The notes under the pieces were generated by a model. It worked only from the letters and a program-made list of their open reading frames with translations, did not search any database and was not told the DNA's origin. The position numbers and the translations under genes were made by a program. Positions 2,300 to 57,778 of a stretch of DNA of 64,000 nucleotides are shown one piece after another. The stretch's first letter is position 1, and each line of letters starts with the position of its first letter. Origin of the DNA: Patescibacteria group bacterium (GTDB taxonomy: Bacteria; Patescibacteriota; Patescibacteriia; JAHJFT01); contig JAQTTB010000002.1 of the NCBI GenBank assembly GCA_028710985.1, positions 6,888 to 70,887 on the forward strand. Reading direction: 5' to 3'.

Positions 2300-2367
2300 A
2301 TATATCGTTTATTAATTATAACAACTACAGTGCGCTCAATCAACGATCTGTCAAGCCCGGACAAACG

Positions 2368-3180: not shown

Positions 3181-3301
3181 ATATCAATGAATTATTGCTA
3201 AAATACCCTTATGCCCTTATATTCATTATCCCCCAACCACCACCCAACACACAACTTTTGGGTGTTGTCATCTTTTTTCAACATATAAGAACGAGTTAGC
3301 T
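3181..3301. promoter_or_regulatory. attI-like region with first cassette junction (GTTAGCT at 3295-3301) and likely cassette promoter
   Basis: GTTAGCT is the reverse complement of the R'' (AGCTAAC) of the first attC. Small inverted repeat CAACAC..GTGTTG at 3244-3270. A TATAAAT -10-like box precedes 3474. Confidence 0.4.
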
Positions 3302-3473
3302 GAAATATTCCTTTTCTTTTTTGGGCTATCGCCCAATTGTTTTAAGAAATTTTCAAATTTCTTTTTCATTAATTATAGAGGGGAATATGGAGTTTTCTTC
3401 GCTCCGCTACGAAAACGATTTATTTATAAGGGGAAAACTAGTACAATACATTTGCATTACTTGAATATAAATT

Positions 3474-4532: not shown

Positions 4533-4538
4533 AACATT

Positions 4539-5630: not shown

Positions 5631-5635
5631 AGATT

Positions 5636-6451
5636 ATGGAAGAATTTATAACTAAATGGCAAACATTGATTGGCTCCGCACTTGGTCCTTTTCTTGCGGT
5701 TATTCTTTCAGCTATAGGTTTTTGGATAAAATCAATCATAGAAGGTAAGAAAGAGCGAAAAGAATTTTTGCGACGAATAGAAATTGGAATTACTCGAAGT
5801 CTTGATGATACATTCAAAACTCGAATAAAACTCCAATATTTTGTATCAAGATTGAGAACACTAATTACAGACATCAGAAAAATAACAGACATTAAACATT
5901 TTTCTCTTGAAACCATAAACTACCCAACCATACGCGATATTTATAAAGACGTCGATTTAGCAAATTTCAAGGTTAAAAGCTACTATCTACACAACATGCT
6001 TTTATGGGCTGACGCAGGAATCAAAGAAACAAATGAAACAGTAATCAGTCTAAAAAATGACTTTGCTGAATTGCAGAGAAAAAACGAACTACATATTATC
6101 TTAATGAGACAAAACCAAACACCAAATCCCGCCCAACAAAGAGCAGAATACGCCGACAATCTTGAATCATTTGCAAACGCCATAGATGAATTTATAACAA
6201 AATTCATGAAACAGGGCGTCGAGATATTGACTCAAATTAAAATTTATAACGAACATTTACGGAAAAAACATGGTTATTGGTTTTTATGGAAATGTGAAGG
6301 AACTAAATTTAAGTATTTTCGCAATAAAACCGAACAGAAAAATTTCTCAAGAAATCTTGACTCAATGGAAAGAATTGACAAAATTATCCAGAAAGAAGTT
6401 GGTGATGCTATCAAAGACGCAGAAGCCAGAGCCTCGAAACTACAACAATAA
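5636..6451 (+). CDS. hypothetical membrane-anchored coiled-coil protein
   Basis: 271-aa ORF with an N-terminal TM segment, in the same AT-rich cassette. Confidence 0.45.
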   Translation: MEEFITKWQTLIGSALGPFLAVILSAIGFWIKSIIEGKKERKEFLRRIEIGITRSLDDTFKTRIKLQYFVSRLRTLITDIRKITDIKHFSLETINYPTIRDIYKDVDLANFKVKSYYLHNMLLWADAGIKETNETVISLKNDFAELQRKNELHIILMRQNQTPNPAQQRAEYADNLESFANAIDEFITKFMKQGVEILTQIKIYNEHLRKKHGYWFLWKCEGTKFKYFRNKTEQKNFSRNLDSMERIDKIIQKEVGDAIKDAEARASKLQQ

Positions 6452-6524
6452 GATGTTTTCGGTCGGGGCAATTCACCCCTTTAATTCCCCTCTTGCCACT
6501 CCCTCAAACGAAAAAGAAATATTG

Positions 6525-6577
6525 TGTTTTGGATTTTGGGCATTCACCCCTAACCCCTCTGCCCAAAATCCAAAACG
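6525..6577 (+). other. 17-bp-stem hairpin in the cassette-1 3' region
   Basis: TGTTTTGGATTTTGGGCA / TGCCCAAAATCCAAAACG with a 17-nt loop. ATTCACCCCT is repeated at 6469 and 6542. Confidence 0.5.
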
Positions 6578-6645
6578 GAAAAAGAAATTTGAAAATTTTT
6601 TAAAACAAGTTTTCTTATCAGAAAACAAAAGAAAAGGAATACATC

Positions 6646-6743
6646 AGCTAACAGCGTATATCTGGTTCGCGCTTGCCTAACGGCAAATGCTCACCCATAT
6701 TGCTCCCTGCGGTCGCAACATCAGATATACGCGAACGTTGTGC
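6646..6743 (+). repeat. attC-like site 1 (R'' AGCTAAC, L'' GCGTATATCTG, L' CAGATATACGC, R' GTTGTGC)
   Basis: Perfect 11-bp L''/L' inverted repeat. R'' is complementary to the cassette start at 3295. Confidence 0.6.
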
Positions 6744-6796
6744 GGCATTGGCTTTCCATTTTTACTTCTTGAACATTCAATTATTTGGGCAGTTTT

Positions 6797-6838
6797 TTGA
6801 AAAATAAAATGACCCGTCAGCAGTTTGCCAAACGGGTC
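6797..6838 (-). terminator. rho-independent terminator of the reversed cassette gene
   Basis: Minus-strand hairpin GACCCGTTTGGCAAACTGCTGACGGGTC followed by ATTTTATTTTTC. Confidence 0.55.
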
Positions 6839-6882
6839 GTACAGATGAGGGGCGGCGGGGCGCGTTATTGCTCAGCAAGACT

Positions 6883-7164
6883 TCATCCTTCCAGTCTCGA
6901 AGTCACCTCCCTGAAGTGTTTACCGAGTTCCGGAAATGCAGAACCGCCGCGGATCTCATGAACTCGTCTGCAGATGGTCTTACGTTGCCGTTCTGGAAAA
7001 ACAGATTCCTTGAGAACTTCCAGCAACGTAATAGCCTTCTGTCTCCGCGCGTTGTCTTCTGCGTCCATGGTAGCGTCGCGATATCCGGAAGGATTGTACC
7101 TTGGCTTCACGGCTTCCTCAATCTTGTCGAGGAGTACTTGTGCCACTGATCTTTTTTCGCTCAT
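6883..7164 (-). CDS. hypothetical 93-aa protein (GC-rich gene in reverse orientation inside the cassette array)
   Basis: AAGGAGGTG Shine-Dalgarno 7 nt upstream of the ATG and its own terminator downstream. Chosen over the overlapping plus-strand ORF 6868..7149. Confidence 0.55.
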   Translation of the reverse strand: MSEKRSVAQVLLDKIEEAVKPRYNPSGYRDATMDAEDNARRQKAITLLEVLKESVFPERQRKTICRRVHEIRGGSAFPELGKHFREVTSRLEG

Positions 7165-7275
7165 GTCGCACCTCCTTTTATTACGCTAGCGACTCTTTCT
7201 TTTACCACAACCGCGCCCCGCCTGTCAAGAGATGGCAACTGCCCAAATAATTGAATAAAATGGAAAGTCAACATC

Positions 7276-7423
7276 GTATAACAAAGTATATTTGGCTCTG
7301 CTCCTCTCCCGCCGTTGGCGGGTTCGTCGCTCCGCCCAAATTGGCTTCCGTTCCGGCGGTGTGCTTTCGCACAATTAAACCGCCTCCACTCCAGCCAACT
7401 TCATATATACTTAAACGTTAAAT
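7276..7423 (+). repeat. attC-like site 2 (R'' GTATAAC, R' GTTAAAT)
   Basis: Imperfect palindrome TATAACAAAGTATAT...ATATATACTTAAACGTTAAAT. Centre contains TCGCTCCGCCCAAATTGG and a GTGTGCTTTCGCACA hairpin. Confidence 0.5.
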
Positions 7424-7506
7424 CCAATAGCGATTGTAATTGATAATCCCATCCCAAAGGCAGTGCTTAACGATAACTTAATAAATGTCTAAAATTTTAT
7501 AAAATT

Positions 7507-8343
7507 ATGAAGATAAAAATTTTAGGTTCGGGTGCATGGGAAGGAATTCCAGTTCCATTCTGTAAATGTAAAATTTGCGAATCAGCAAAGAAACCTAATT
7601 CAAAAGATAACAGAACAAGACCGCAAATTTCAATTGAATCGGATGAAGGGCAATTTTTGATAGAAATAAGTCCTGACATTCGCATTCAATCCACAAAATT
7701 TAATTTACCAAATATTAGCAATTTCCTAATAAGTCACTGGCATTTTGACCACATGTATGGCTTATTAGAACTTCATGCATGGATAGAATTTGTTTTAGGA
7801 CAAAAATCAAAATTATTTTGCTCTCAAAAGACAAAAGAATGGCTCGACCAGAGTTTTGGACATATACCAAAAGAAATAATTGTAGTCAAGCCATTTGAAA
7901 AATTTGATTTATTTGGCACAAAAATTACTCCGATACCTCTTTATCACATGAGTGGGCGAGATAATAATACAAAAGAAAACGAATTAGATAATGCGTATGG
8001 TTTTCTTTTAGAAAAAAATGGTAAAAAGGCAATTTATCTCGCCGATTACTATAAATTGCCAAATAAATCTTTAGAACTTGTAAAAGATTCCGATATTATT
8101 ATTGCTGATGGAACTTATCTTTTTGAAGAATCTTTTCCAGACAAACCAGAGCAAAATAATTTAAAAACTGACCCAGACCATTTGCATGGAAAACAAATTC
8201 TTGATTTTGTTAGCGGATTGAATGCTAAGAAAGTGATTTTTCATAGTATTTCACATTTAACAGAAAAATCACATGAGGAACTTCAAAAATTGCTCCCAAA
8301 AAATATGTTTATTTCTTATGATGGAATGGAACTGGAATTATAA
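7507..8343 (+). CDS. MBL-fold metallo-hydrolase
   Basis: HWHFDH motif; 278 aa; single-gene cassette. Confidence 0.7.
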   Translation: MKIKILGSGAWEGIPVPFCKCKICESAKKPNSKDNRTRPQISIESDEGQFLIEISPDIRIQSTKFNLPNISNFLISHWHFDHMYGLLELHAWIEFVLGQKSKLFCSQKTKEWLDQSFGHIPKEIIVVKPFEKFDLFGTKITPIPLYHMSGRDNNTKENELDNAYGFLLEKNGKKAIYLADYYKLPNKSLELVKDSDIIIADGTYLFEESFPDKPEQNNLKTDPDHLHGKQILDFVSGLNAKKVIFHSISHLTEKSHEELQKLLPKNMFISYDGMELEL

Positions 8344-8443
8344 ACGCACTGCCTTTTCCCACCCTTAAAATAGCAATCGCTACTCCTTCGCTCCATTTCA
8401 TTCCGCTCGGGCACGTTGCACTCTCCTCACTTCGTTCGTCGGC

Positions 8444-8538
8444 GGATTTAACAGGGCTTAAAGGGTTCGCTCGTTACACTTCGCTCTCCCAAATTTTTTG
8501 TGTGCGACAAAAAACTTCCCTTAAGCCCGATGTTATGT
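8444..8538 (+). repeat. attC-like site 3 (R'' GGATTTAAC, L'' AGGGCTTAAAGGG, L' CCCTTAAGCCC, R' GTTATGT)
   Basis: R'' is the exact reverse complement of the 9-mer GTTAAATCC that starts this cassette. L'' carries one extra A relative to L', as for an extrahelical base. Confidence 0.7.
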
Positions 8539-8564
8539 GAAATTTTTGTCCTATTTTTATCTAT

Positions 8565-8954
8565 ATGAACATAAAAAAAACTATTTTTAAAACCATTCTT
8601 ATAAATATTCTACTAGTTACAATTACAGCTATTATCTTAAGTTCGGTGTATTTACTTTCAGCACAAAAGACCGATCCAAAAAATTACTTACATATGGAAT
8701 ATTTAGATGACGAATTGCAGAATGGTCATTACATATGTCCGCATTTATGGGACAGATACTCCTATGCATGTGGCACAGGGGACTTAATTTATACTTTTGT
8801 TGTAGGTACTGTTGGTATAATTTTCCTTGCGTACATTCCACTTGGTCCAACTGCAGAATATGCGATTTTGAATTATGCAATTCTTTTGATAATTTTTATC
8901 ACTGTTTATATTGTGTCCAAAAATAGTACAAAAACATCACATAACAGCGTATAG
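8565..8954 (+). CDS. hypothetical small membrane protein (cassette-encoded)
   Basis: 129 aa with 2-3 predicted TM segments. The stop codon lies inside the attC R''/L'' region. Confidence 0.5.
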   Translation: MNIKKTIFKTILINILLVTITAIILSSVYLLSAQKTDPKNYLHMEYLDDELQNGHYICPHLWDRYSYACGTGDLIYTFVVGTVGIIFLAYIPLGPTAEYAILNYAILLIIFITVYIVSKNSTKTSHNSV

Positions 8955-9015
8955 CAGACTACGCTTCGCTCCGTCCAAATTGCTATGCAACTTCTGCTAT
9001 ACGTAAACGTTAGGC
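8938..9015 (+). repeat. attC-like site 4 (R'' CACATAAC, L'' AGCGTATAGCAG, L' CTGCTATACGT, R' GTTAGGC)
   Basis: R'' is the exact reverse complement of GTTATGTG at 8532. Centre contains TCGCTCCGTCCAAATTGC. Confidence 0.7.
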
Positions 9016-9036
9016 GAAATAACAAAAATTACCAAT

Positions 9037-9378
9037 ATGATATATATAATCTGGTTAGTCTTACTTAGCCTCTTTGTTTTTTCTTTCCTTGTTCCCAAAT
9101 TTCCTATCTGGATTCCTGTTTTAGCCTATTTATTGGTAGTTGGCGTGAGAGTTAAAGAAAAATATGGGAATTACTTAGATTGGATTGAAAAAAACCACCG
9201 CGATGAAGAGCGAGCGATTGATGCAAATTTGCATGATTTCGAAATTAAAGGGTTGGCCACAAGCGGAATGCGACTAAAGCAGGAAAATCATATTAAAAAA
9301 GACTTCGAGTATGAACGAAAAAAACAAAAAAGACAAAGAGACACAGAGCTAATCGATTGCTTATTCATAAAAAAGTAA
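9037..9378 (+). CDS. hypothetical small membrane protein (cassette-encoded)
   Basis: 113 aa with a hydrophobic N-terminus and a K/E-rich tail. Confidence 0.5.
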   Translation: MIYIIWLVLLSLFVFSFLVPKFPIWIPVLAYLLVVGVRVKEKYGNYLDWIEKNHRDEERAIDANLHDFEIKGLATSGMRLKQENHIKKDFEYERKKQKRQRDTELIDCLFIKK

Positions 9379-9390
9379 TTTTTGTTACAT

Positions 9391-9824
9391 CGCCTAACAC
9401 GGCATATCTGACTTCGCTTAAAAAACAGATAATTTTATTTACTAATATGCTACAATTATGTACGTACCCGCATGGATTTTCTTCGTCATTATGATAGCTA
9501 TGGCAGCTGCAACTATAGTAATTGATGATCACATAAAAAAGCAGAATAACAAACTAGAAGATCGAATTGATGATATCGAAAAAAGAATTAATGGTATTGA
9601 GGATTTTGTTGGTTTAGACGAAACGGCCCTAAAAGTACATAAGGAGTTGAAGATGGAGCAAGAGATGGATGAAATAACAAGGAATTCTTTTAATAAACAA
9701 GCTGGAAGGAATGTAAAATGAACATAGGATTATCTATTTTTTTAGCTCCGCCCATATTCCGCGCACACATTTTAATTAATAAATTGGGAGTGCGCGAAAC
9801 ATCGGATATGCCGAAACGTTATGT
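9391..9824 (+). repeat. attC-like site 5, enlarged to about 430 bp (R'' CGCCTAAC, L'' CGGCATATC at 9391-9411; L' GATATGCCG, R' GTTATGTG at 9804-9825)
   Basis: R'' is the exact reverse complement of GTTAGGCG at 9009. L''/L' match 9/9 although they lie 390 bp apart. The conserved centre (AGCTCCGCCCATATTCC plus a CGCGCAC..GTGCGCG hairpin) sits in the 3' half. Confidence 0.5.
9458..9721 (+). CDS. hypothetical 87-aa TM/coiled-coil protein carried on an insertion inside attC 5
   Basis: ORF lies between imperfect inverted repeats TAAAAAACAGATAAT (9419-9433) and ATTATCTATTTTTTTA (9729-9744). Confidence 0.4.
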   Translation: MYVPAWIFFVIMIAMAAATIVIDDHIKKQNNKLEDRIDDIEKRINGIEDFVGLDETALKVHKELKMEQEMDEITRNSFNKQAGRNVK

Positions 9825-9855
9825 GAAGTAATAATAATTCACTATTGCCCTTAAA

Positions 9856-10245
9856 ATGGAAAAAAAGATTAACAAATTCATCTATTGGACGCCGAGAATA
9901 TTATCAATAATGTTCATTTTATTCTTGATGCTGTTTTCTTTGGACATCTTTGACATGGATTTGAATTTTTGTGAAACTCTCGTTGGTCTGTTTATGCATA
10001 ATATCCCCGCATTATTCCTGTTGATCATTTTAATAATTTCCTGGAAATATGAAATTGTCGGAGGAATCGCCTTTATTCTCGCGGGGCTACTCTATATCCT
10101 GTTGCTGGCAATGAATCCCGTATTTGGATGGTATATGCTGTCATGGCCGGTAACAATTTCCGGTCCGGCATTTTTAATAGGAACATTATTTTTGGTTGGC
10201 TGGTTTTTAAAAAGAAAATCCAATAAAAATATTACTAAAATTTAA
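9856..10245 (+). CDS. hypothetical polytopic membrane protein (last cassette-like gene)
   Basis: 129 aa with 4 predicted TM helices; follows R' GTTATGTG at 9818. Confidence 0.5.
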   Translation: MEKKINKFIYWTPRILSIMFILFLMLFSLDIFDMDLNFCETLVGLFMHNIPALFLLIILIISWKYEIVGGIAFILAGLLYILLLAMNPVFGWYMLSWPVTISGPAFLIGTLFLVGWFLKRKSNKNITKI

Positions 10246-39996: not shown

Positions 39997-40260
39997 AGTT
40001 TTTATTGAATTTTGGTTTATTATATAGAAACTCGATGAGAAACTCGACGACTTTTCATATCTTATTTCACCCACACAGTATAGCACATATAGGATAATTA
40101 ATCAAGAGCCAACTAAAAAGCGCCATTTCACAATGGTGCCTCTTAGTTGGCTCCGAGCGGCGCGTGAACTTAGAACCGTTATTCTGAACGGCTGGCACTC
40201 CTACGAAATGGACGCGGCCGTCAAAATGCTCCGCCATGAATCACCGTTCGATATGATAGA

Positions 40261-43200
40261 TTAAGTATTTGTAGGTTCTTTCTCGGCCGTTAAAGATTCT
40301 ACTTCCTTCCAAAAATCCTTTTCTTCTTTTTTTGGATTAGACACTTTAAGTCCTTTAATTCGCTCTACAACAAAAGCTTTATTCTCACCCTCAGGCCAGT
40401 CCTTAAGGCGGGCTAACAAATCTTTAAAATCTTTTTCATAAGCTGGATAGGTTGGTTTCACTTCATCTAAAATTCCAAGAGAAGTCTGCAAGGAGTTCTT
40501 ATCACGATCCGGTCTCAACATATCAAACAAAACATAAACGAAATCTTTAACGGGAGTCTCCTGCATAATTCCTGTTAGGCTAGATACAGTTTTTAAGGCA
40601 AAATGATGAGCTGAAGTTAATATTTTTCCTGGTTGTCTGAGCCAATCCAGAATTTCTTTACCAATCTCTCGTTTTTTCTCTTCTCCCAAAAAGTCAGACT
40701 TGATTAAAAAGTTGAAGCCGGCTTCTTGAGACGCAAGTGCATCAGATTTTATAAGATTTTTAATTTGAGTTACTGCCTGATCTTTCAAATCTACTGGATC
40801 ATTTTTGCTTAATTGAATCGGCAGATAATCATAAACTGCAATTTGTTCTCCAAAAGGGATAGACGTTACTTTAGCCAATAAAGATTTTACAACCATTTGT
40901 CGATCCGGCAGATTATCGCCCAAACTCTTTATAAAATTCAAACTATTTGCACCCTTCTGGTTAATAATATTTTTAAGCAACTCAATCTTTTTATCCTTAT
41001 CTGCTTTTTTGTATACAATTTCTAATAACACATCATCACTCATACTACGAGATAGCAATGGTTTGAAGTAGGTAGATAGAAATTTTTCGGCAGTTTCTTT
41101 TTTCCAATAATCAAATACTAAACCAATCTTAGCGGCTCCAGCGTTTTGGAAGTAACCATTAATCTGAGCTACGAGTTCATTCTGTTGTGCTTCTGGCACA
41201 TAGAAGCTAATCCAACGTAAATTATTAACTAAGCCCGTGCGATTATCCCAAGCCCCAATACTATTAAACGCCTGGATAAAATTCTTTGTAAGCTGAATTT
41301 TAGTGCCGTCATCAACAATCTTAAACTGATCCTGAAATTCACTAAATATATCCCCGCAAGTAGCGAATAAAGTTTCTTTTTCTGCGCGGTAGTCTGGACT
41401 CTCGGTAGTCTCTTTATTTATTACTTCAGTAATTTTTTGCAGAATTATATTAAACTTGTTCTTCTCTGAAATGTATTCCTTAAACTGCTTAATTATTGTA
41501 ATCTGTCCCGATAGACTATCTCGGTTGAAATTAGCGATAAATTTGTCAAACGCCTGGGGAGAAATAAAGGTCGTCTGTTCTTCAAGTGTGCCAAATAGCG
41601 ATATAATATCGAAATTTGTTGAAAAATTCTCATCAATAAACTTAACGATCTGAATTTTATCTTCATCTGCTATTAATGAAGCGTTTTGTTTTAAGTTCGT
41701 AAGAATATCTTTTAATATTGACCCCATATTTGGCTTACGAACCTCTTCTGTTCCCACGGCCAAAACATAGCGCTTAATTAAGGGTGCGCGGAACTGGACA
41801 TCTAGTTCCTGCTTCGTAATAAGGTCAGAAAAAACTAAGTTAGTTTGGAGCTGAGTGAAAAATTGCCATAGATCAGCATCTAAAACACGAGCAAGGGATT
41901 CGTAATATACTTTAGTCGAAGACGAAATCCCCAATTCGTGGAAAGCCTCTAAGTGAGTAGTAAATATTTTAAGCAATATATCTCTCTGGCTCCTATACTC
42001 ACGCAAGAGATGACGGATAAAATCAACTAATGATCCTTTATTGGTTTCCGCCGAGGCAAGTTCCTTAAATTTATCTTTGTTGCCCTCGGCCAAACTCAGT
42101 ATCATTTCCTCTGAATTGTTGAGAGATTGATAAATGGTCGGTTCTTTGAAATAGATAAACGGGCGGGCGTTAGAAACGGTAATACGGCTCGTATTTAACA
42201 TGAAGTTACGTAAATCAGCAGAATCTTTATCTTTTAGAATGTTTTCTGGTTCAAACCATTTATCCTTTAATCGATGATAAGCGGGTGTAAATTTTTGTCT
42301 AAGCACCAATACTTTTGCTAAATAAGCGATATTGTCTTTAATCCTTTGCCATACCTCCGTTTTAGAAGCTAAGACTAATGCTGCTATTAAATTATTTATA
42401 AACTGTTTAATCTCACGAGGATTGTTAGAAAAAGCATTGCTAATCACATAAACAATATCCTCTGAATCTTGACCTTGGAGTAAACTTTTTATTTCGCCGG
42501 TATCATTAATCAGTTTTTTAATATATGCGTGAAGATCGGCTTCAATAAATTCGGGCGTCCAAATTACAACATTAAATAGCTTTCTAAGATATTCTGAAGG
42601 GTCAAAATCTTCATCATCCTGACCACCATAAAAACTTTTGATTTGGCTAATAATGGCTTCTGAATCGCAGGGAACTATAAAAACAAGTCCAGCAACACCG
42701 GCCGGATCAAGGAACGTTTTGATAGCAGAAAGAATTTTTATTGCCGCATCACCCTGAACACGATCAATGTTATCAAAAACTATTACAACTTTTTTATTAA
42801 CTTTTTGAAGTATCAGTCTAAACAGAGCTTCAAATTGCTCCGGGGAGTTTAACCGTTCCTCTTTTTCAACCCTTGTTTTAATAGAGGCAAGTGGATTTAA
42901 CGAAGATAAAAACTTTTCGACCGAGCGTTCCCAAACTTTCTCCAGTAAAGGCTTAAAAAAGAGAGCTAGAACAGAGAATGAAGCTACAACGGCCGCAAAA
43001 TCTTTAATTGTTTGAATAATCAGATTATTATTTTTGAAAATCAAATTTAAAATTACCCATCCGATTACTAAAATCAGAGATAAGACTAAAAGCCAGTTTG
43101 TTTTTAACAACAACCAAACTTTTTTAAGCCATCCGGCAGAGCTTACTTGCATTTCGGCCGTCGTTATTTCGCAACTTTCCTCTGTTGATTTATAAAGAGG

Positions 43201-43536
43201 GTCAAGTATTTTTTTATCCTCGGGCGAAAGTTGTTTTTGACTAATCAGAAAGTTTACTAATTCGATCAAAAAAATTCTGCGTAACGAATCTTCCTGATAT
43301 TTCCATGCATCAAAAACAAACATCGGGCTTTGTAGATCGTGACGTATCATTTCAATGATTGTACTTTTGCCCGTACCCCACCTACTAAAAAGTCCGATGG
43401 TATGAACACAAGAATCGTTTTCTAGTATCTCTTTCATAGCTGGAGCAACGTTCTCATGATAAAAGCCAAAAATACCATCTTGACCATTACCAAGCGGGAC
43501 ATCTTTCAAAAATTTAAATTTTAGTTCTTCGGGCAT
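40261..43536 (-). CDS. KAP-family P-loop NTPase (1091 aa, TM helices inserted into the P-loop domain)
   Basis: Walker A GLFSRWGTGKST; two hydrophobic helices after about residue 130; hhhhDNID Walker B-like (VIVFDNIDR). Confidence 0.7.
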   Translation of the reverse strand: MPEELKFKFLKDVPLGNGQDGIFGFYHENVAPAMKEILENDSCVHTIGLFSRWGTGKSTIIEMIRHDLQSPMFVFDAWKYQEDSLRRIFLIELVNFLISQKQLSPEDKKILDPLYKSTEESCEITTAEMQVSSAGWLKKVWLLLKTNWLLVLSLILVIGWVILNLIFKNNNLIIQTIKDFAAVVASFSVLALFFKPLLEKVWERSVEKFLSSLNPLASIKTRVEKEERLNSPEQFEALFRLILQKVNKKVVIVFDNIDRVQGDAAIKILSAIKTFLDPAGVAGLVFIVPCDSEAIISQIKSFYGGQDDEDFDPSEYLRKLFNVVIWTPEFIEADLHAYIKKLINDTGEIKSLLQGQDSEDIVYVISNAFSNNPREIKQFINNLIAALVLASKTEVWQRIKDNIAYLAKVLVLRQKFTPAYHRLKDKWFEPENILKDKDSADLRNFMLNTSRITVSNARPFIYFKEPTIYQSLNNSEEMILSLAEGNKDKFKELASAETNKGSLVDFIRHLLREYRSQRDILLKIFTTHLEAFHELGISSSTKVYYESLARVLDADLWQFFTQLQTNLVFSDLITKQELDVQFRAPLIKRYVLAVGTEEVRKPNMGSILKDILTNLKQNASLIADEDKIQIVKFIDENFSTNFDIISLFGTLEEQTTFISPQAFDKFIANFNRDSLSGQITIIKQFKEYISEKNKFNIILQKITEVINKETTESPDYRAEKETLFATCGDIFSEFQDQFKIVDDGTKIQLTKNFIQAFNSIGAWDNRTGLVNNLRWISFYVPEAQQNELVAQINGYFQNAGAAKIGLVFDYWKKETAEKFLSTYFKPLLSRSMSDDVLLEIVYKKADKDKKIELLKNIINQKGANSLNFIKSLGDNLPDRQMVVKSLLAKVTSIPFGEQIAVYDYLPIQLSKNDPVDLKDQAVTQIKNLIKSDALASQEAGFNFLIKSDFLGEEKKREIGKEILDWLRQPGKILTSAHHFALKTVSSLTGIMQETPVKDFVYVLFDMLRPDRDKNSLQTSLGILDEVKPTYPAYEKDFKDLLARLKDWPEGENKAFVVERIKGLKVSNPKKEEKDFWKEVESLTAEKEPTNT

Positions 43537-43603
43537 ATTTTTACTTTTTCACTACTTCTTCTACTAAAGATTTTATTTTCCAGATTTGGTCTAGTTACTT
43601 TGT

Positions 43604-44773
43604 TTACCGATTACCTTTTGCTCGATTGTGTGTCTTGCAAAGCATCTGGCAGTTTTTTGCTGAAGTTGCACCTCCCTTGCTCCAGGCTGCTACATGGTCT
43701 GCGTCCATTTCGCTAAAACTCCAAATCTTACTCTTGTTAGCATCATGCCCAATGGCACAATGCGGGCAGTTTGATTCGTCTTTTTTCTCTGCCTTGACGG
43801 TTTGTGTTGTATAAACCGTCTTTTTGGTTGCTTCATCAAAAACTCGGACTTCAAGTAATTTTGTGTCAATGGAACCACCAAGAATATACTCAAAAATACC
43901 TTTGCGATTTTTAACATACGGATCAGCATAGAGCTTCTGTACCTCGGCTGATACTTTGGCTGGATTGTACGATTTTTTATGGTGTTCCTCATAAAGTCGC
44001 CCCCACTCAAGACCGCGCATCTCGCTTTCAACATTAGTAAACACACTAGAAACCCAATCGATCACGCTGTTGAAATATTTTTTTAATTCATTAATATTTT
44101 TTTCAAAACGATGACGACTCATATAATCGCCGATATTACCTTTGCTTACCCAATCCAGCGCACATTCTAAAAATTCCTGCCGGTTAGCGCTACCGGATAC
44201 ATACGCGCTCCATTTTTGAATGTTGGCGTTTTGGCTATTACTAAATTCCTCCTTGCCGAGCGTTACAAACGGCCCGGAATACACCGCATTAAGTAATTCC
44301 TGACCATTAAGTGGAACACCGGCAATATTAATTGTTTTGAACCACTCTTTTATCTCGCTTTCTTTCCCTTCGCATTCGTAAATAAGTAAAGTAGTTTTTA
44401 AAATTTTACCCTGTTTGTCTTTTGCCATACCGCTAAAATATTGCTCCATGCCGTTTTCGTCTTTGATAGCAAATTTGTCAGTTATAAACCGCCCAAGACT
44501 AGTGATGCGTTGCTGGCCGTCTAAAACCTCTAAATTGTTGTCGCTTACTTTGTTAAAATAGATCAATCCTATCGGGTACTCTTTGAGGACTGATTCAATG
44601 ACGGCCATTTCTTTTTTACCACCATCAGAAGCATAAATATAATTGCGTTGATACTCCGGTTGAATGGTCAATTTACCAGACAAACCGAACAAACCCTTAC
44701 CTTCAAGTTCGTTATAGACAAACCCATCGCAAATATCTTTAACAGTAATATTAATTTTTAAAGTTGTTTTCAT
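43604..44773 (-). CDS. DUF262 (ParB-like) plus HNH nuclease; GmrSD/BrxU-like type IV restriction-type enzyme
   Basis: DUF262 motifs IQPEYQRNY and [11 protein letters not shown]-terminal HNH: CPHC...[12 protein letters not shown]...[15 protein letters not shown]. Confidence 0.7.
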
Positions 44774-45966
44774 ATTATTTTTTTCTTATGTTTAATAAGC
44801 ACTCTTTGATAAACTTTTTCCAATAAACCATCTCGAATAATTACTCCACTTGCGTTCAAGTCATAGGTTCCTGTTTTCCCGAATTTATCTAAATACGCCT
44901 GTTTACATTCTGCGGATGTATACACTTTTGTTTTTTGTTTATATAAATCTTCATTCTCACACATTCCAACAATCTTAAACTGCTCGGGGCTATATTTATC
45001 AAGAATACTGACCGGTACTCCCATTACGCCGCTGTAATCGCTCGGGATATTTTTTACTAACGACACTTCTATCGCGTTATAATTTTCATATTTCTCAAAC
45101 GGTTTTTTCATTACGAACTTTATCACCTCTGCCTTGGTCATGAGTGGGAGTGGCTGATGACGACGCCCATGGTCAAGATTGGTAAACCAGCGAACACCCT
45201 GCACTCTAGTGACATATACTTTTTTTCCGCTTTCATTTGTTTTTATTTCACGAACCTGCTCTAAATTGGCAATGTTTTCGGGTATCTCAAAAAACATTGC
45301 ACCGGCATTAACTTTGTAATTATTACCTAACCAAACTTTATTCTCTTTAAGTAATGGGAATATTTCTTTGTAGGTAATCGCGTTCAGGTTGCCGATGATC
45401 AAAAACTTTTTATCATACTTAACAAGTTGTTTTATGTACTCGCGAAATAGACTGAACGGCGGATTAGTTACCACAATGTCAGATTGTTTCAATAGATTAA
45501 TGGACTCATCGCTGCGAAAGTCGCCGTCGTCCTTTAGCGGCATCCATTCGTTATGTTTGTTTGCCTTTAACTGCTTAGCAATGTCTTTCAAGTTGAACTC
45601 GCCATCGCCGTCTATATCGCGCACTTCGTTAATAATGAACTTGTTGGCATTTATCTTTGGACGGCCTTTTGATTTAGTAAGAGTTTTGTCATCGCCAAAT
45701 AATTCCAGTTGCGTATTGGCAACGGGCGAGGGTTTGTAACTAGTGGTGATAAGCTGCTTCAATCCAAGCTTGTTGAAATTAAGCACGAAATAGCGGAAAA
45801 AATTGCTCTCAAACGGGTCGTCGCAGTTACAATACACCACCTTGCCTCGAAATACGTTAGGATCGTATTCCAAATACGCCTCAATCTCTTTCTGAATATC
45901 GCTGTACTGAGTATAAAACTCGTCATTCTTTACTTTTTTTGCGTTTGCAAGATTTTTGTTTGCCAT
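44770..45966 (-). CDS. N6-adenine DNA methyltransferase (NPPF motif; EcoRI-methylase-like family)
   Basis: N-terminal KNDEFYTQ and motif IV VVTNPPF. Overlaps the downstream DUF262-HNH gene by 4 bp. Confidence 0.65.
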
Positions 45967-45970
45967 AAAA

Positions 45971-46675
45971 TTATTTTTCGTTATCTAGGGCAAGCTTCAG
46001 TAAAAATATCGTCTCGGCTCTGAGTTTCGACTTCACCCAAGCTTTCTGCTTCTCGTCTAGAAGTTCGCCCATACCGGAAAGAATATTGCGGTCACTGACT
46101 TTCTCCAAAGAGTTAATGCATTTTTGTAAAAAATCTTTATAAGACGTTCCTGTTCGGCCCTCTATAATTTCTTTATTCACCGGCCAGTTATTATGCAAAA
46201 AATAATACACGTCAAAAATATCACGATTAGTCTTACCGATGCGTTCATACATCGCACAAAGTTTATGAGCCAACATATCTTCCTTCACCATGACTTTCAT
46301 AGAGATGCCAAGGTATGCCTTTACTTCATACCTCGATCCAAAATTCCGGCGATTTATTTCCACCTTAATATTTTGAGCACCGATTTCCTTATCATCGTAA
46401 GAAAGTAAAAATAAAAGATTGAACCTTTTCGTTTGAGCTTCTTTAATGGTGCCGTAGGCACTTAAAATCTTTTGAATTTGTTCAAAGACATAATCTTCCT
46501 TACTCTCTTCCAACAGATCAAAATCCAAGTCTACTGAAAAACGATTGAGATCATAAAAAAGAAAGGCGGCTGTACCTCCTTTGAATCCCAAAAGCGGTCC
46601 AATAGTTGAATCAGTGTAAATGTCTTTTAAAATTCTGACGAGAATATTTTTGTGTTTTACTGTATCAAGTGACAT
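45971..46675 (-). CDS. AbiEii/DUF1814 nucleotidyltransferase toxin
   Basis: GFKGGTAAFLFYDLNRFSVDLDFD motif. Confidence 0.75.
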   Translation of the reverse strand: MSLDTVKHKNILVRILKDIYTDSTIGPLLGFKGGTAAFLFYDLNRFSVDLDFDLLEESKEDYVFEQIQKILSAYGTIKEAQTKRFNLLFLLSYDDKEIGAQNIKVEINRRNFGSRYEVKAYLGISMKVMVKEDMLAHKLCAMYERIGKTNRDIFDVYYFLHNNWPVNKEIIEGRTGTSYKDFLQKCINSLEKVSDRNILSGMGELLDEKQKAWVKSKLRAETIFLLKLALDNEK

Positions 46676-46680
46676 AGAAT

Positions 46681-47313
46681 TTATTTGGGATTATTTATTA
46701 AAGACTCGTGATATTTTTTGACCATTCTCTCCATTCGTTTATTACCTCCGTAGATAGGCAAGATTAAGTTAACTTTGTCCCAATCCAAAACTGACAAATT
46801 ATCAAAATGATAATCCGTGTTTAAATAAACAACATCTAAAAATGCTCTTTCAGTCGAAGCAATACTGTAATTATCTTTTATTTCGATGCCGGCATTGTTA
46901 GTGAGAATTTCGTCTTTAATCCTTTTGAAAGCAACTACTTGCCCATCGCATTCAATTTCTTTATTTTGGTACGAAGCAACAAAAATTTTAGAGTAGTGTT
47001 GAAAGGTTACACCGGCCGATCCGAGGACGGTTTCAAAACTGACGTAAGAAGGCGTAAATATTTTGGTAGCTAACTCATATTTGTCGTAATTTTTGTCCTT
47101 GGCATAAAGACCGCGACGTATATGGTAAAGATTATTGTGTTTAGTATAGTAATTAACCCTTGAACCAGCGGTAAGCTTGTCAATTCCTCCCCAAAGCAAA
47201 ATAAGGTCTTTGAAAGAAAAAACCGTTTTGCTTGATCTCAATATTTCGTTTAAAAAGCCTTTTTCCATATGTTTGAAGTTAAATATAAGACCCTGCCTTA
47301 TGTTCAACTCCAA
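46681..47313 (-). CDS. AbiEi-like antitoxin / transcriptional regulator
   Basis: Directly upstream of AbiEii; N-terminal wHTH-like region with IRRGLYA; 210 aa. Confidence 0.65.
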   Translation of the reverse strand: MELNIRQGLIFNFKHMEKGFLNEILRSSKTVFSFKDLILLWGGIDKLTAGSRVNYYTKHNNLYHIRRGLYAKDKNYDKYELATKIFTPSYVSFETVLGSAGVTFQHYSKIFVASYQNKEIECDGQVVAFKRIKDEILTNNAGIEIKDNYSIASTERAFLDVVYLNTDYHFDNLSVLDWDKVNLILPIYGGNKRMERMVKKYHESLINNPK

Positions 47314-47367
47314 TTATATGATATAATCAATAAGAGTGCAAGAGCTAAGGGGATAAACAAAACAACT

Positions 47368-47445
47368 GATTAATCACTGTCTTATAATATAATAAGACAT
47401 GTAATTTTTTAGAAATAAAGAAGCCTTATTATATTATAAGGCTTG
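47368..47445. promoter_or_regulatory. two related palindromes in the divergent promoter region (candidate AbiEi operators)
   Basis: GTCTTATAATATAATAAGAC and AAGCCTTATTATATTATAAGGCTT sharing the core CTTATwATATwATAAG. Confidence 0.4.
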
Positions 47446-47453
47446 AATAACTT

Positions 47454-48398
47454 ATGAGAAAACAGCTTAAAGCAATAATTAATAAGCTAAACAAACGGCC
47501 AATATCTTCTTTGACCGGCGATGAATTTGATGTGTATTTTGAACACCGAATGGATAACTTGATATGTGATAAAAAGGTCCTCACTAAAAATGAGCTTGTC
47601 TATCTCCTTTCCGAAACCGGTCCCGGTAATCGACGCATTGATCCGCGATTAGTATTAAAGCTTGTCGATCAAAACATTCTAGTTTCTTCCATACTTGGGG
47701 CTTTACCTGAAATGACAAAATTAAAAGGCCAAAAAGAAAAAGTGGATAAATATATACTCGACCATAAAAGCTCTAAGGAAACTAAACAATCAATTATTAA
47801 ATTGATTGGGAGTTATCTAAAAAATGTAAAAATGATTTCAGATGATCCCTTTATAATCGAAGCCACATTTAAGAATATGCCAATCTCCTGCCTGATAAAA
47901 AACGGTGGCTGGATATTTCCGGATTCAGAATTATTTTCTTTTCTAAGCGCAGTTCAAAAACAAAAAAGGTTTCCAATAGTAATTGCTAAAAAGATATCGG
48001 GTATTCTTTTTCCGGTATTTAAGGGATTGTCGATTTTAGGTTTAAATCTATACAAAACCCTTTTGCCAGAGGAGGGAGAAAAGTTAATAACTAGCTCTAT
48101 TTATAAACCAAAAGAGAGTTTTCTATCAGAGCTGAAGTATAACGGTCAGTTTCAATTTTTAACAAGAGAATACGTTGAAAATATCCAAGACGAATATTGG
48201 AATGGCGATCCGCTAAAAAACTTCTTTGAGAATGTCTTGCTCGGAAATATATCTACTTATTACGAGAATTTCTCAAATTTGAAAATAAATATTACCGATA
48301 ATTTTGCCGATACTGTATCTCAGTTCAGAAAAAACAAAACGACAAAAAATTTACTTGAAATGTATAAAACGCAAGAAAAGATTATTAGCGCTAAATAA
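47454..48398 (+). CDS. hypothetical protein (314 aa, AT-rich, defence-island context)
   Basis: ORF only; no recognised motif. Confidence 0.45.
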   Translation: MRKQLKAIINKLNKRPISSLTGDEFDVYFEHRMDNLICDKKVLTKNELVYLLSETGPGNRRIDPRLVLKLVDQNILVSSILGALPEMTKLKGQKEKVDKYILDHKSSKETKQSIIKLIGSYLKNVKMISDDPFIIEATFKNMPISCLIKNGGWIFPDSELFSFLSAVQKQKRFPIVIAKKISGILFPVFKGLSILGLNLYKTLLPEEGEKLITSSIYKPKESFLSELKYNGQFQFLTREYVENIQDEYWNGDPLKNFFENVLLGNISTYYENFSNLKINITDNFADTVSQFRKNKTTKNLLEMYKTQEKIISAK

Positions 48399-50996: not shown

Positions 50997-52607
50997 ATGA
51001 ACCAGGAAGTACAACCAAAATTCAAGTACTTCCTCTACGCTCGAAAATCTTCAGAACAAGAAGATAGACAGGTCCTTTCGATTGACTCGCAAAAGAGCGA
51101 ACTGGAAGCGCTTGCAAAAAGAGAAAAGCTCCAAATTGTGGAGCGTCTGGAAGAATCATACTCGGCCAAAGCACCGGGCCGTGAGATTTTCAATCAGATG
51201 ATAAAACGGATAGAGAAAGGCGAAGCTGAGGGCATAATCGCCTGGCATCCGAACCGGCTCTCGCGTAATTCCGTGGACACCGGATACCTGGTCTATCTCA
51301 TGGATCAGAACAGGCTTCAGGACATACGTACACCCGGTCAGGCCTATCGAAACACACCGAATGATAAATTTCTTCTTAACCTCCTGTGTAGTCAGGCTAA
51401 ACTTGAAAATGATAATAAGGGTATTGATGTAAAACGCGGACTAAGGCGCAAGGTAGAAATGGGTTGGCACCCTGGGCCAGCACCGGTTGGCTATATGAAC
51501 ACGCCAGATAAGCTGAAAGGTTTTAAAACGATCCGCAAAGACCCGAAGATGTTTCCGATTGTTCGGAAAATGTTTGATATGCTTTTAAGCGGAGATTTTA
51601 CCGCTCCCCGTGTTCATGAGATTGCTATTAGCAATTGGGGCGTAAAGAAATTAGCGCGAAGCGGATTCTACCGCGTGCTTTATAATCCTTTCTATTATGG
51701 CTGGTTTGAATGGCCACAAGGCTCAGGTAACTGGCACAAAGGCAAGCACGAGCCGATGATCACACGCGACGAATACGACCGAGTCCAAAAACTACTCGGC
51801 CATGGGAGCAAACCAAAACCGGAAACCCACACTTTCGCTTACACCGGCATGATTCGTTGCGGCGAGTGCGGCTGTATGGTTACGGCCGAGAATAAAATAA
51901 AGAAAAACAAAAACGGCAACGTCCATCACTACACCTATTATCACTGCACTAAAAGAAAAGGTCCGTGCAGTCAGAAATGCATTGAGGTGGATGAACTGGA
52001 AAAACAGATCAAAAAAACGTTGGCCAAAGTTCAGCCACCGGAAGAATTCCACGGCTGGGCAATGAAGTGGCTTCAGAACGAAAACGGACGCGAGGCGGCC
52101 GATCGAAACGCAATACTTTCCAACCAACAAAAGAATTACGAAGTCTGCGTGAAAAAACTAGACGCTTTAATTGATATGCGCGCCGCCGGCGAGATCAGCG
52201 AAGAAGAATTCACACGCAAGAAATCGGAAGTCAACCAGGAAAAAGCCAAGTTGCACGAACTTCTAAATGACACTGACAGCCGCATAGACAGCTGGCTTCA
52301 GACGGCCGATAACATTTTAACCTTCGCCGGCGACGCCAACGAAGCGTTCACAGAACGAGGCCAGCATGCGAGAAAAGTAATTTTGTCTGCCCTCGGTTCG
52401 AACCTCCTCTTAAAAGACAAAAACATAAGAATTGACACGGATTCCGCGCTTCTGCCGTTAATTCTTGTCTCATCCGGGTCAAATCAAAAAATTGGACGGT
52501 TAGAACCTGCCCAAATAGGCTCTAATAAAGAGAAAAGCGGAGCTTTTGGCTCCGCAAATCCCACATGGCTCTGGGGGTGGGATTCGAACCCACGACCAAT
52601 TGGTTAA
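50997..52607 (+). CDS. large serine recombinase (integrase)
   Basis: N-terminal resolvase domain (YARKSSEQEDRQVLSIDSQ), recombinase domain and zinc ribbon (CGECGC...YYHC). The ORF 3' end runs into the tRNA-Asn 3' end, so the true stop may be earlier. Confidence 0.85.
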   Translation: MNQEVQPKFKYFLYARKSSEQEDRQVLSIDSQKSELEALAKREKLQIVERLEESYSAKAPGREIFNQMIKRIEKGEAEGIIAWHPNRLSRNSVDTGYLVYLMDQNRLQDIRTPGQAYRNTPNDKFLLNLLCSQAKLENDNKGIDVKRGLRRKVEMGWHPGPAPVGYMNTPDKLKGFKTIRKDPKMFPIVRKMFDMLLSGDFTAPRVHEIAISNWGVKKLARSGFYRVLYNPFYYGWFEWPQGSGNWHKGKHEPMITRDEYDRVQKLLGHGSKPKPETHTFAYTGMIRCGECGCMVTAENKIKKNKNGNVHHYTYYHCTKRKGPCSQKCIEVDELEKQIKKTLAKVQPPEEFHGWAMKWLQNENGREAADRNAILSNQQKNYEVCVKKLDALIDMRAAGEISEEEFTRKKSEVNQEKAKLHELLNDTDSRIDSWLQTADNILTFAGDANEAFTERGQHARKVILSALGSNLLLKDKNIRIDTDSALLPLILVSSGSNQKIGRLEPAQIGSNKEKSGAFGSANPTWLWGWDSNPRPIG

Positions 52608-56736: not shown

Positions 56737-56824
56737 TGGCGGTGGGAGTGGGATTCGAACCCACGATACCTTGCGGTATACACGCTTTCCAAGCGTGCGC
56801 CATCGGCCACTCGGCCATCCCACC
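56737..56824 (-). tRNA. tRNA-Ser (GGA), type II with long variable arm, CCA encoded
   Basis: Acceptor GGTGGGA/TCCCACC, anticodon stem CACGC/GCGTG with loop TTGGAAA, variable arm TATACC-GCAA-GGTATC, T arm GTGGG-TTCGAAT-CCCAC. Confidence 0.85.
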
Positions 56825-56943
56825 ATTGAGGAATTTTAAACGTTTTTAAATAATATCCATCCTTTCCTTATCTAGCTCTTTCGGCCACCCCCGCAAAACG
56901 GGGCCCCGCTGCGCGGGGTCGGCCATCCCACCATTAAGGAATT
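56811..56943. repeat. about 30-bp direct repeat duplicating the tRNA-Ser 5' end plus upstream flank
   Basis: TCGGCCATCCCACCATTGAGGAATTTTAAA (56811-56840) and TCGGCCATCCCACCATTAAGGAATTTTAAA (56914-56943). Confidence 0.55.
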
Positions 56944-57164
56944 TTAAATTTTAAGTTTTAAATTTTAATTCAATTTTAAATTACCAATCTCAAATGACTC
57001 AATGTAGGCATATTGTACCATTTTAGCCTTATTTTTTCAACCCCGCCCGGCTGCTAGATTCTAGATTCTAGCTACTAGATTCTGGTAATAAAAAAAAGAG
57101 CCGCTTGCGCGGACTCTTAGGGGAAGAAAAAAGAACTAACACAGACCATGGGCCTGCAGAATTG

Positions 57165-57281
57165 AAGGGACGGCGGGAATCGAACCCGCAACCTTTCCGG
57201 TTCCGGAATCGTGCTCAAGATAGGAGGTCAGTCCTTAGTCGACTCCGGTCGTTAACGCTCTGCCAGTTGAGCTACGTCCCT
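57165..57281 (-). tRNA. tRNA-like gene (117 nt) with canonical acceptor, D and T arms but a roughly 40-45-nt insertion in the anticodon/variable region; possible intron-containing tRNA or tRNA-derived pseudogene
   Basis: 5' AGGGACG-T-A-GCTC-AACTGGCA-GAGC-G ... 65-nt region with a 9-bp internal stem (CCGGAGTCG/CGATTCCGG) ... GCGGG-TTCGATT-CCCGC-CGTCCCT-T. A terminator hairpin lies downstream at about 57096-57125. Confidence 0.4.
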
Positions 57282-57778
57282 GTTGGGCACCGCGCTACCG
57301 CTGGCGCAAAGGCCGATGCGGTTTTTGCGGCGGTACCCTGCCCGGTTTCCCCCCTGCTCTGAACGGGCATATGCCTGATGCGGCGATCGGACTTTTTTGT
57401 CGGCCGGCTGATTTGTCGCCGGCTTGAGCGGGTCCGCACGCTCTTCCCGTCGTGCGCGGTTTTTGTTTCTCGGAGGAAACCGCGTTTATCCCCCATCGAG
57501 AGTGTTATCTGGTGCGCACCTCCGCTCGGCCGGAACGGATAACGGGGTTATCTCTTGCCCGCTATCCTCTCGCCGCTCTGATGGTCTTCTTCGGATCGTA
57601 CCACTTCTCGGTCTTCCTTCGCCTGGTTGGGCGCGCGCTCCGGATCTGCGACGGCGATGCCCTGGAGTAGCTCATCCTCGAGCTCCTTTCTCCCATGAAT
57701 GGTTGATGGGACCTCTCCACGAAAATATATTAATACATCAACCGCTGCCCGTCAACCAACTTATTCAAAATATGAATA

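Follow-up and report, generated by a model that had tools for sequence, protein, structure and literature searches.

The 64,000-nucleotide (nt) window analyzed here is a stretch of a contig from a Patescibacteria group bacterium, and all coordinates given without a contig label refer to it. At positions 57165-57281, on the minus strand, it carries an element of 117 nt that has the acceptor, D and T arms of a tRNA, and in which a long hairpin stands in place of the anticodon arm. Downstream of the element, on the same strand, lie tRNA-Ser(GGA), a PP2C-like gene, dnaG, rpoD and tRNA-Asn. Upstream lies the gene of a 520-amino-acid membrane and coiled-coil protein, which belongs to no Pfam family and whose look-up matched only itself; beyond it, on the opposite strand, a CarS-like/DAGK lipid operon is found. 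L-numbers (L202, L239 and others) designate the contigs and loci with which the window was compared.

Read from 57281 to 57165, the element is AGGGACG-UA-GCUC-AACUGGCA-GAGC-G, then 65 nt, then GCGGG-UUCGAUU-CCCGC-CGUCCCU-U. Its parts, with the evidence for each in brackets, are the following:

57275..57281, minus strand: acceptor, 5' strand AGGGACG (sequence, Rfam tRNA alignment, fold)
57257..57272, minus strand: D arm GCUC-AACUGGCA-GAGC (sequence, Rfam tRNA alignment, fold)
57249..57256, minus strand: unpaired linker GUUAACGA, that is, G26 and 7 nt (fold; alignment with the corresponding linker in the unpermuted YrlA-like RNAs described below)
57203..57248, minus strand: irregular hairpin in place of the anticodon arm, with a 9-base-pair (bp) helix at its base, then CU/AG and AGGA/UCUU (fold, pair probabilities)
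57221-57231, minus strand: apical loop CUGACCUCCUA, containing CUCCUAU, which resembles the tRNA-Trp loop CUCCAAA (fold, tRNA-Trp comparison)
57190..57202, minus strand: mini-hairpin AACC-GGAAA-GGUU at the variable-arm position (fold)
57173..57189, minus strand: T arm GCGGG-UUCGAUU-CCCGC (sequence, Rfam tRNA alignment, fold)
57165..57172, minus strand: acceptor, 3' strand CGUCCCU, and discriminator U, followed by CAA and not CCA (sequence)

The seven acceptor pairs AGGGACG/CGUCCCU are all of the Watson-Crick type, U8 and A9 are present, and every nucleotide involved in tertiary contacts is there (U8, A14, A15 with U48, G18 and G19, A21, G53, U54, U55 and C56, A58, and C61). The Rfam tRNA model (RF00005) matches exactly the 57165-57281 interval on the minus strand, with 47.0 bits against a gathering score of 29, model positions 1-71 being covered (E = 6.7e-07 over the whole window). 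In this alignment, 57 nt of the element occupy 13 anticodon-arm positions. An initial annotation, made by a model from the sequence, had described canonical acceptor, D and T arms with U8, and a 65-nt region containing a 9-bp helix; both descriptions are borne out, the first by the sequence and the Rfam score and the second by the fold. From G26 to the T stem, the 65 nt consist of the 8-nt linker, the 46-nt hairpin and the 13-nt mini-hairpin. The 9-bp helix, CCGGAGUCG/CGAUUCCGG, includes one G.U pair and has pair probabilities of at least 0.98; an irregular upper stem and the 11-nt apical loop sit on it. The minimum free energy of the whole element is -46.5 kcal/mol (z = -3.0), and none of 200 shuffled sequences was equally stable. 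The insertion proposed in that annotation is real, but its size had been put at about 40 nt, and the excess over a normal tRNA is nearer 45 nt. The motif CCGGA occurs three times around the insert.

The element is not a decoding tRNA, because it has no 7-nt anticodon loop, encodes no CCA, and gives no canonical arm after one excision. It lacks a 5-bp anticodon stem whose 7-nt loop has U33 and, at position 37, a purine. The 3' end reads U-CAA, and the tRNA-Asn and tRNA-Ser genes of the window both encode CCA. ARAGORN did not report the element in default mode, and found no tmRNA in either default or intron mode; the only match to the Rfam tmRNA_permuted model was a 13-bit fragment on the T arm. 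A normal intronless tRNA starting at another 5' end, which would have done away with the feature, does not exist at this place. That a covariance model might align the element without a conserved anticodon loop had been foreseen, and the alignment indeed does so; the feature itself is not removed by this.

The element appears to be the last part of a longer transcription unit, in which three more features were recognized:

57727..57755, minus strand: sigma-70-like promoter TTGACG-17 nt-TAATAT (9 of 12 matches; the only promoter-like site upstream on this strand)
57282..57720, minus strand: U-poor (12% U), GC-rich and purine-rich region of about 440 nt with no long reading frame (composition, fold, sequence)
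57090..57158, minus strand: 3' trailer with two terminator-like hairpins (the first found by scan, the second by eye)

Transcription would start at about position 57720. The upstream RNA of about 440 nt, with a minimum free energy of -174.6 kcal/mol (z = -3.07), runs directly into the element with no terminator between them, and the two are probably co-transcribed. The first terminator-like hairpin (57158-57140) is weak; the second (57116-57098) is stronger and has a U8 tail (57097-57090), one bulge having hidden it from the scan. Where a single terminator had been annotated downstream, there are therefore two such hairpins. The upstream RNA was compared with RNase P RNA, tmRNA, 6S, ROOL, GOLLD and the other Rfam families, and none matched up to E 10. 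It was also rejected as a CsrB-like RNA or Shine-Dalgarno sponge, GGA, GGAG and AGGA not being above dinucleotide expectation. A BLAST search of it against phage genomes gave no match.

Contigs of relatives were reached through their DnaG and DAGK homologues (45-66% identity). A large surface protein encoded next to the CarS operon is homologous across these relatives (24-27% identity, E = 1e-18 to 1e-27), which anchors the locus. Downstream of this protein, beside the CarS-DAGK operon, L202 and L239 each have a tRNA-shaped gene of 72-74 nt. The one in L202 (8080-8153; 47.2 bits) has a 5-bp stem with the 9-nt loop GCAGUUUGU, and is followed by G-CAA; in the one of L239 (4549-4620; 54.2 bits) the arm is shortened, its loop, UGAAUGAG, measures 6-8 nt, and U-CUU comes next. 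In both, the other arms are intact, the anticodon arms are aberrant and different from each other, and CCA is not encoded. No anticodon is conserved among these counterparts at the same place, the two loops having nothing in common.

The order of the unit does not differ between the window, L202 and L239: it runs from the terminator of the surface-protein gene through promoter, U-poor RNA, tRNA-like gene and terminator to the promoter of the next gene. Each of the three units has one strong sigma-70-like promoter (9-11 of 12 matches) and no internal terminator, and the upstream RNAs are 360-760 nt long, with 11-14% U and no long reading frame. They are more stable than shuffled sequences, with folding z-scores of -3.1, -2.2 and -4.3; the corresponding RNA of L210 has only -0.6. 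When the three tRNA-like bodies are aligned, 48 of 48 stem cells pair, and 7 of 16 pairs are changed on both sides (5 of the 7 acceptor pairs and 2 of the 5 T pairs). This level of covariation was reached by 1 of 500 shuffles, and slid controls pair at 44-53%.

Several observations were made on the long RNAs themselves. Promoter-driven, U-poor (11-15% U) non-coding regions of 0.36-0.76 kilobases (kb), GC-rich and purine-rich, are present in four relatives, each 3' of the homologous surface-protein gene: window 57282-57720 (minus strand), L202 7322-8079 (plus), L239 4621-4985 (minus) and L210 7270-7860 (plus). Close to the 5' end in every one of them, a GGAGG-like motif is found, and after it an AUG and a mini reading frame. 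None of the four matches an Rfam family. The 11-mer GGUGAAUGAGC, which forms the anticodon-like loop region in L239 (4582-4592), also occurs in a hairpin loop of the L202 upstream RNA; GUGAAUGA occurs again in L202 and GGUGAAUCGAGC in L210 (about 7383-7395), the L202 sites being at about 7490-7500 and 7934-7941 (by eye). This recurrence may reflect a common loop motif or chance. The L202 upstream RNA also contains an internal duplication (7402-7429 and 7621-7648, 219 nt apart), with a 28-nt core of 82% identity, which by eye reaches about 65 nt and includes GGCCAGGAGGGGUGU.

As to the origin of the element, BLAST against phage genomes returned tRNA-Trp 3' halves only: seven tRNA-Trp genes of Caulobacter phages match the element's 3' 37 nt at 89% identity. 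Over the body, 51 of 57 positions are identical to the tRNA-Trp of Caulobacter phage RB23, including A1-U72. The anticodon-stem strands of bacterial tRNA-Trp(CCA), CCGG and ACCGG, border the insert, and CUCCUAU of the apical loop corresponds to CUCCAAA. The element differs from tRNA-Trp(CCA) by its 46-nt arm and extra hairpin without a CCA anticodon, by its discriminator, which is U and not G, and by the lack of an encoded 3' CCA. The simplest history we infer is a tRNA-Trp copy whose anticodon stem was extended outward on both sides. A spare tRNA-Trp gene may have been co-opted as the 3' module of a non-coding transcript specific to the lineage.

We favor the view, with a probability of about 50%, that the element is a functional, tRNA-Trp-derived, non-decoding tRNA mimic that forms such a 3' module. 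The reasons are that the arms are intact, that the anticodon domain is non-decoding, that CCA is missing, that the counterparts are aberrant as well, and that the same unit layout is found in three loci. Among the candidates first put forward for the element, a tRNA-derived regulatory or non-coding RNA is thus the one that is retained. Each single step of the mechanism that we propose is less probable than this view as a whole. The anticodon arm of a tRNA-Trp gene would have grown into the 46-nt hairpin and the small hairpin, with loss of the 3' CCA. The L-shaped body would then serve as a handle for RNase P and other tRNA-handling factors. RNase P might cut at the 5' end of the element, which would set the 3' end of the upstream RNA and free a stable RNA of about 117 nt, and the body would shield the transcript from 3' exonucleases. 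The long hairpin, directed away from the elbow, may be a free platform for a protein or RNA partner, like the Ro60-binding stem of Y RNAs.

A number of points weigh against this interpretation. RNase P cleavage and partner binding are predicted steps, and the 46-nt hairpin appears to be specific to the element's lineage. The window body is 68-70% identical to those of L202 and L239 (which are 79% identical to each other), compared with 89% to tRNA-Trp, so that the three tRNA-like genes are perhaps not orthologous in the strict sense, and the covariation could in part be due to differences in tRNA ancestry and not to selection at the locus. L210 has kept the long RNA but no tRNA-like end, and the long RNA and the tRNA-like gene are both missing from L211, L240 and L206, which indicates that the module is accessory or dispensable. 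Pattern scans of genome, metagenome and viral contigs (D arm, 50-80 nt, T loop) found no homologue of the insert, and the exact 16-mer of the apical loop gave only chance matches within coding DNA in viral contigs. With no second copy of the insert in the collections, the hairpin has no comparative support. Finally, blastn among the upstream RNAs of the window, L202, L210 and L239 revealed no similarity, and no 9-mer is common to those of the window, L202 and L210.

Several of these points would fit a dying tRNA-Trp pseudogene, in which a recent palindromic insertion or slippage ruined the anticodon arm and the rest has not yet decayed. The body retains 89% identity to a real tRNA-Trp, the discriminator and the CCA are mutated, the threefold CCGGA around the insert is compatible with duplication or slippage, the element is absent in several relatives, and its insert has no homologue in any collection searched. 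We nevertheless consider a pseudogene unlikely. All 16 of 16 stem pairs and all tertiary-contact nucleotides are intact, the changes being confined to the anticodon domain and the 3' tail, and the insert is a very stable, well-formed hairpin. The same pattern is seen at the same place in L202 and L239, and the small genomes of the candidate phyla radiation (CPR) rarely retain some 0.6 kb of dead DNA that has a promoter and a terminator of its own.

Among known kinds of RNA, the one nearest to the element is the bacterial Y RNA, which it resembles in build. YrlA (Rfam RF02553) is an L-shaped, non-decoding bacterial tRNA mimic with a long stem for an anticodon arm and, optionally, a small 'V' hairpin preceding the T arm; it is circularly permuted, with both of its ends in the Ro-binding stem and a loop closing the acceptor, and its gene lies no more than about 4 kb from that of Ro60, on the same strand (Chen et al. 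2014, PMC4201824; Wang et al. 2018, bioRxiv 10.1101/312249). It is modified by TruB and DusA, its M. smegmatis form is cut by RNase P, and its motifs are GNCGAAN0-1G, which binds Ro60, and YUAY before the V arm (PMC4201824). The element shares with YrlA canonical D and T arms with their tertiary nucleotides, and GCUC/GAGC in its D stem and GCGGG/CCCGC in its T stem are exactly the YrlA consensus of Rfam. It differs in its open acceptor of 7 bp, formed by the 5' and 3' ends, and is thus not permuted; it also lacks GNCGAAN0-1G and YUAY, the nearest strings being GCACGAUU and AACC. The Rfam YrlA model gives it 19.3 bits against a gathering score of 69, in a match that extends over the T arm and the 3' flank only.

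Among the results of the pattern scans were many bacterial 'tRNAs' of 100-130 nt whose parts follow the order seen in the element. Loci containing such RNAs include 13 with Ro60 (TROVE+vWA), 20 with DUF2828+DUF7788 and 10 with RtcB. The RNA is on the strand of the gene in 30 of the 31 scorable long tRNA-like RNAs of these three kinds of loci. It lies directly upstream on the same strand in 7/7 cases for Ro60 and 16/16 for DUF2828+DUF7788, one of them on a Saccharibacteria contig, and RNAs adjoining Ro60 and DUF2828 genes are at most 1.5 kb from the gene. The loci with these unpermuted YrlA-like RNAs are:

Ro60 loci: L028, L035, L041, L052, L064, L132, L162, L171
DUF2828+DUF7788 loci: L006, L018, L022, L029, L033, L036, L037, L043, L044
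Further DUF2828+DUF7788 loci: L056, L065, L068, L126, L175, L178, L199, L218, L225
RtcB loci: L013, L024, L027, L053, L095, L099, L111, L113

These RNAs have an open 7-bp acceptor and a loop-closed Ro-binding stem, and tandem arrays of 2-4 copies are frequent. In the Ro60-linked set, the YrlA hallmarks GNCGAAN0-1G and UUAUC (PMC4201824) are present and 16 of 27 pairs covary, and this set has the core CUUGC..GGNCGAAGG..GGUUAUC. Rfam labels them 'tRNA' only, with 43-54 bits. This unpermuted form, in which the parts are in tRNA order, is absent from the published descriptions of YrlA and RF02553 and from the literature searched.

The element has all the parts of the unpermuted RNAs: open acceptor, D arm, linker, long hairpin, small hairpin and T arm. 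On a covariance model of the family, built from 10 Ro60-linked members, it scores 62.0 bits, its linker and outer stem aligning in register; members outside the training set score 63-74 bits and ordinary tRNAs 51.7 and 55.4, so that the margin is small. There are differences as well: the small hairpin of the unpermuted RNAs usually has a 7-nt anticodon-like loop, which that of the element has not, and they lie directly upstream of a Ro-type or RtcB gene. By tblastn, no Ro60 (TROVE), DUF2828 or RtcB gene was found in the 64-kb window. The 520-amino-acid protein encoded upstream was considered as a Ro60 relative and rejected, being a membrane and coiled-coil protein without such a domain.

The element thus resembles a Y RNA in build and falls outside the family, because the motifs are absent, the YrlA score is far below the gathering score, and no Ro-type or RtcB gene is present in the window. 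It could still be a true bacterial Y RNA if its hairpin bound a Ro60-type protein (TROVE or DUF2828) encoded elsewhere, with the body recruiting a second factor. The order of parts, equal to that of RNAs directly upstream of Ro60 and DUF2828+DUF7788 genes, the D and T stems equal to the YrlA consensus and the alignment with the family model speak for this, and the Saccharibacteria example implies that CPR bacteria can carry such systems. However, the family score is just about 7-10 bits over that of ordinary tRNAs, the family core is not present in the element, the window has neither a partner gene nor, in the upstream neighbour, a substitute for one, and the L202 and L239 counterparts are without a long hairpin. 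Together with the low YrlA score, this makes a Y RNA quite improbable.

A working tRNA with a small, non-canonical intron, as had been suggested, is a very unlikely alternative. The excised product would be tRNA-Arg(CCU) or tRNA-Trp. In intron mode (-i), ARAGORN, one of the checks called for by the initial annotation, indeed reports a tRNA-Arg(CCU) of 94 nt with a 24-nt intron at position 31/32, the only software solution with an intron, and an independent enumeration agrees with it; the apical-loop CUCCUAU is also near to the tRNA-Trp loop CUCCAAA. However, this solution is contrived. The exhaustive enumeration of single excisions yielded no canonical arm (5-bp stem, 7-nt loop, U33, R37) with a short variable loop, and gave two outcomes. 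The first, with the loop CGGAACC, has the anticodon stem interrupted by the insert after nucleotide 28 and before nucleotide 29; it was rejected, as it folds at -26.4 against -46.5 kcal/mol and has no U33/R37. The second, UUAAC-CUCCUAU-CUUGA, is that of ARAGORN and needs a C31.C39 mismatch and a 25-nt variable arm; we know of no bacterial tRNA-Arg with a variable arm of that length. It also disrupts the 9-bp helix despite its high pair probabilities, and its junctions are in the unpaired linker and the apical loop, without a bulge-helix-bulge. A Trp-like arm is restored only by two excisions. No CCA is encoded, unlike in the real tRNAs of this genome, and the anticodons CCU and CCA are both absent from the counterparts in L202 and L239.

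The size of the insert leads in the same direction. At 24-57 nt, the possible introns are far under the group I size (about 200 nt or more). The statement that the insert is too short for a group I intron holds, since it measures 45-57 nt and Rfam, searched up to E 10, finds no intron, ribozyme or other family on it; the Infernal/Rfam check that had been proposed returns the tRNA match. RtcB was not found in the window by tblastn, and literature searches on bacterial anticodon-stem insertions or CPR tRNA introns gave nothing relevant. Archaeal bulge-helix-bulge pre-tRNAs resemble the element in having extra anticodon-arm sequence in an otherwise canonical tRNA gene, and several of them were found by the same pattern scan. 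The element differs from them by the absence of a bulge-helix-bulge and of a canonical arm after excision, by its bacterial host, and by an anticodon that is not conserved in its counterparts.

Least credible of all is a tRNA gene scarred by the integration or excision of a mobile element, also proposed initially: tRNA genes often serve as integration sites, and the window has low-GC islands, a serine recombinase (50997-52607) and a 30-nt duplication of a tRNA-Ser 5' end 230 nt downstream of the element, but, even with as many as 3 mismatches tolerated, the 3' half and the insert each occur only once in the window, which argues against both a scar and a repeated mobile hairpin, the nearest recombinase is 4.6 kb off and adjoins tRNA-Asn, with no integrase adjacent to the element, and integration copies the 3' part of a tRNA and gives no 45-nt hairpin within an anticodon arm.

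The surroundings of the element have some features of their own. The 30-nt direct repeat (56811-56840 and 56919-56948; 97% identical, 108 nt apart) consists of the first 14 nt of tRNA-Ser(GGA) and the 16 nt upstream, with a GC-rich palindrome between the copies (56883-56924), and looks like a rearrangement scar before tRNA-Ser. Between the terminator of the element and tRNA-Ser there are short, AT-rich tandem repeats, AATTTTAAATTTTAAG... and CTAGATTCTAGATT (56940-56995 and 57054-57081), which overlap several promoter-like sites. The low-GC islands, at 2001-10000 and 40001-48000, have 31-40% and 34-38% GC, compared with about 49% elsewhere, which suggests acquired DNA. The large serine recombinase gene ends within or beside tRNA-Asn. 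In relatives, a gene for a bacteriorhodopsin-family protein was seen near rpoD (L202 13759-14349, L205 6199-6828, L212 8598-9230).

Other long tRNA-like genes were returned by the scans. Those of about 101-108 nt from soil and metagenomes comprise one family (L121, L124, L130, L137, L154, L155, L161, L168, L185, L189 and L081), L152/L160 and L127. In all of them the anticodon arm is tRNA-Ile(UAU)-like or CAGAUAA, and after it the variable region contains one or two additional hairpins, for example GCC-GAAA-GGC and CCCC-GGAUAA-GGGG. The body of L127 is the nearest to the element among the scan hits (29 of 35 compared positions); the neighbours of L127, of L152/L160 and of the L121-type family are uninformative. 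Another family (L131, L173, L180, L188, L227, L077 and L169/L223/L224), some members of which are on viral contigs, is characterized by a loop of about 45-50 nt, with the conserved core ACUUUUCGC..GCAAAAAAAGUUCCUA, on a 5-bp anticodon stem that is intact.

Two known systems can be compared with the tRNA mimic that we favor. The 3' tRNA-like modules of the MALAT1-mascRNA type, and the other tRNA-like structures processed by RNase P, are eukaryotic or viral. Like mascRNA, the element has a tRNA shape at the 3' end of a long non-coding transcript, where an RNase P cut is possible; it differs in that its processing is a prediction and in that its upstream RNA is unrelated. The tRNA(Other) of Bacillus cereus, from the work of Ataide, Ibba and colleagues, is reportedly a tRNA-Trp-like small RNA with a regulatory role. 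It is thus said to be, like the element, a bacterial tRNA-Trp-related gene working outside normal decoding, and to have, unlike the element, an anticodon arm of normal size with a CCA anticodon.

The tRNA-Trp ancestry, the long upstream non-coding RNA and the Y-RNA-like architecture had all been missed in the initial annotation. In automatic annotation, tRNA finders either miss the element (ARAGORN by default) or call it a tRNA (Rfam) or an intron-bearing tRNA-Arg (ARAGORN -i); either result distorts the tRNA inventory and the inference of the genetic code for a reduced CPR genome. As a tRNA mimic, this Patescibacteria example would join a short list from bacteria. It is possible, if doubtful, that the element and the U-poor RNA of 0.4-0.8 kb together form one new kind of Patescibacteria non-coding RNA. 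If such is the case, this RNA would be long, structured and quick to evolve, a tRNA mimic built into it would both make and protect its 3' end, and it would be the bacterial counterpart of MALAT1-mascRNA, the mimic's anticodon arm being free to become new binding platforms; the loop of the platform hairpin would then copy, with ACCUCCU, the anti-Shine-Dalgarno end of 16S rRNA. Beyond this locus, many of the 'tRNA' labels next to Ro60, DUF2828 and RtcB genes stand for unpermuted, Y-RNA-like molecules, which go undetected by the Rfam YrlA model. They offer a route to Y RNAs in phyla in which none has been annotated.

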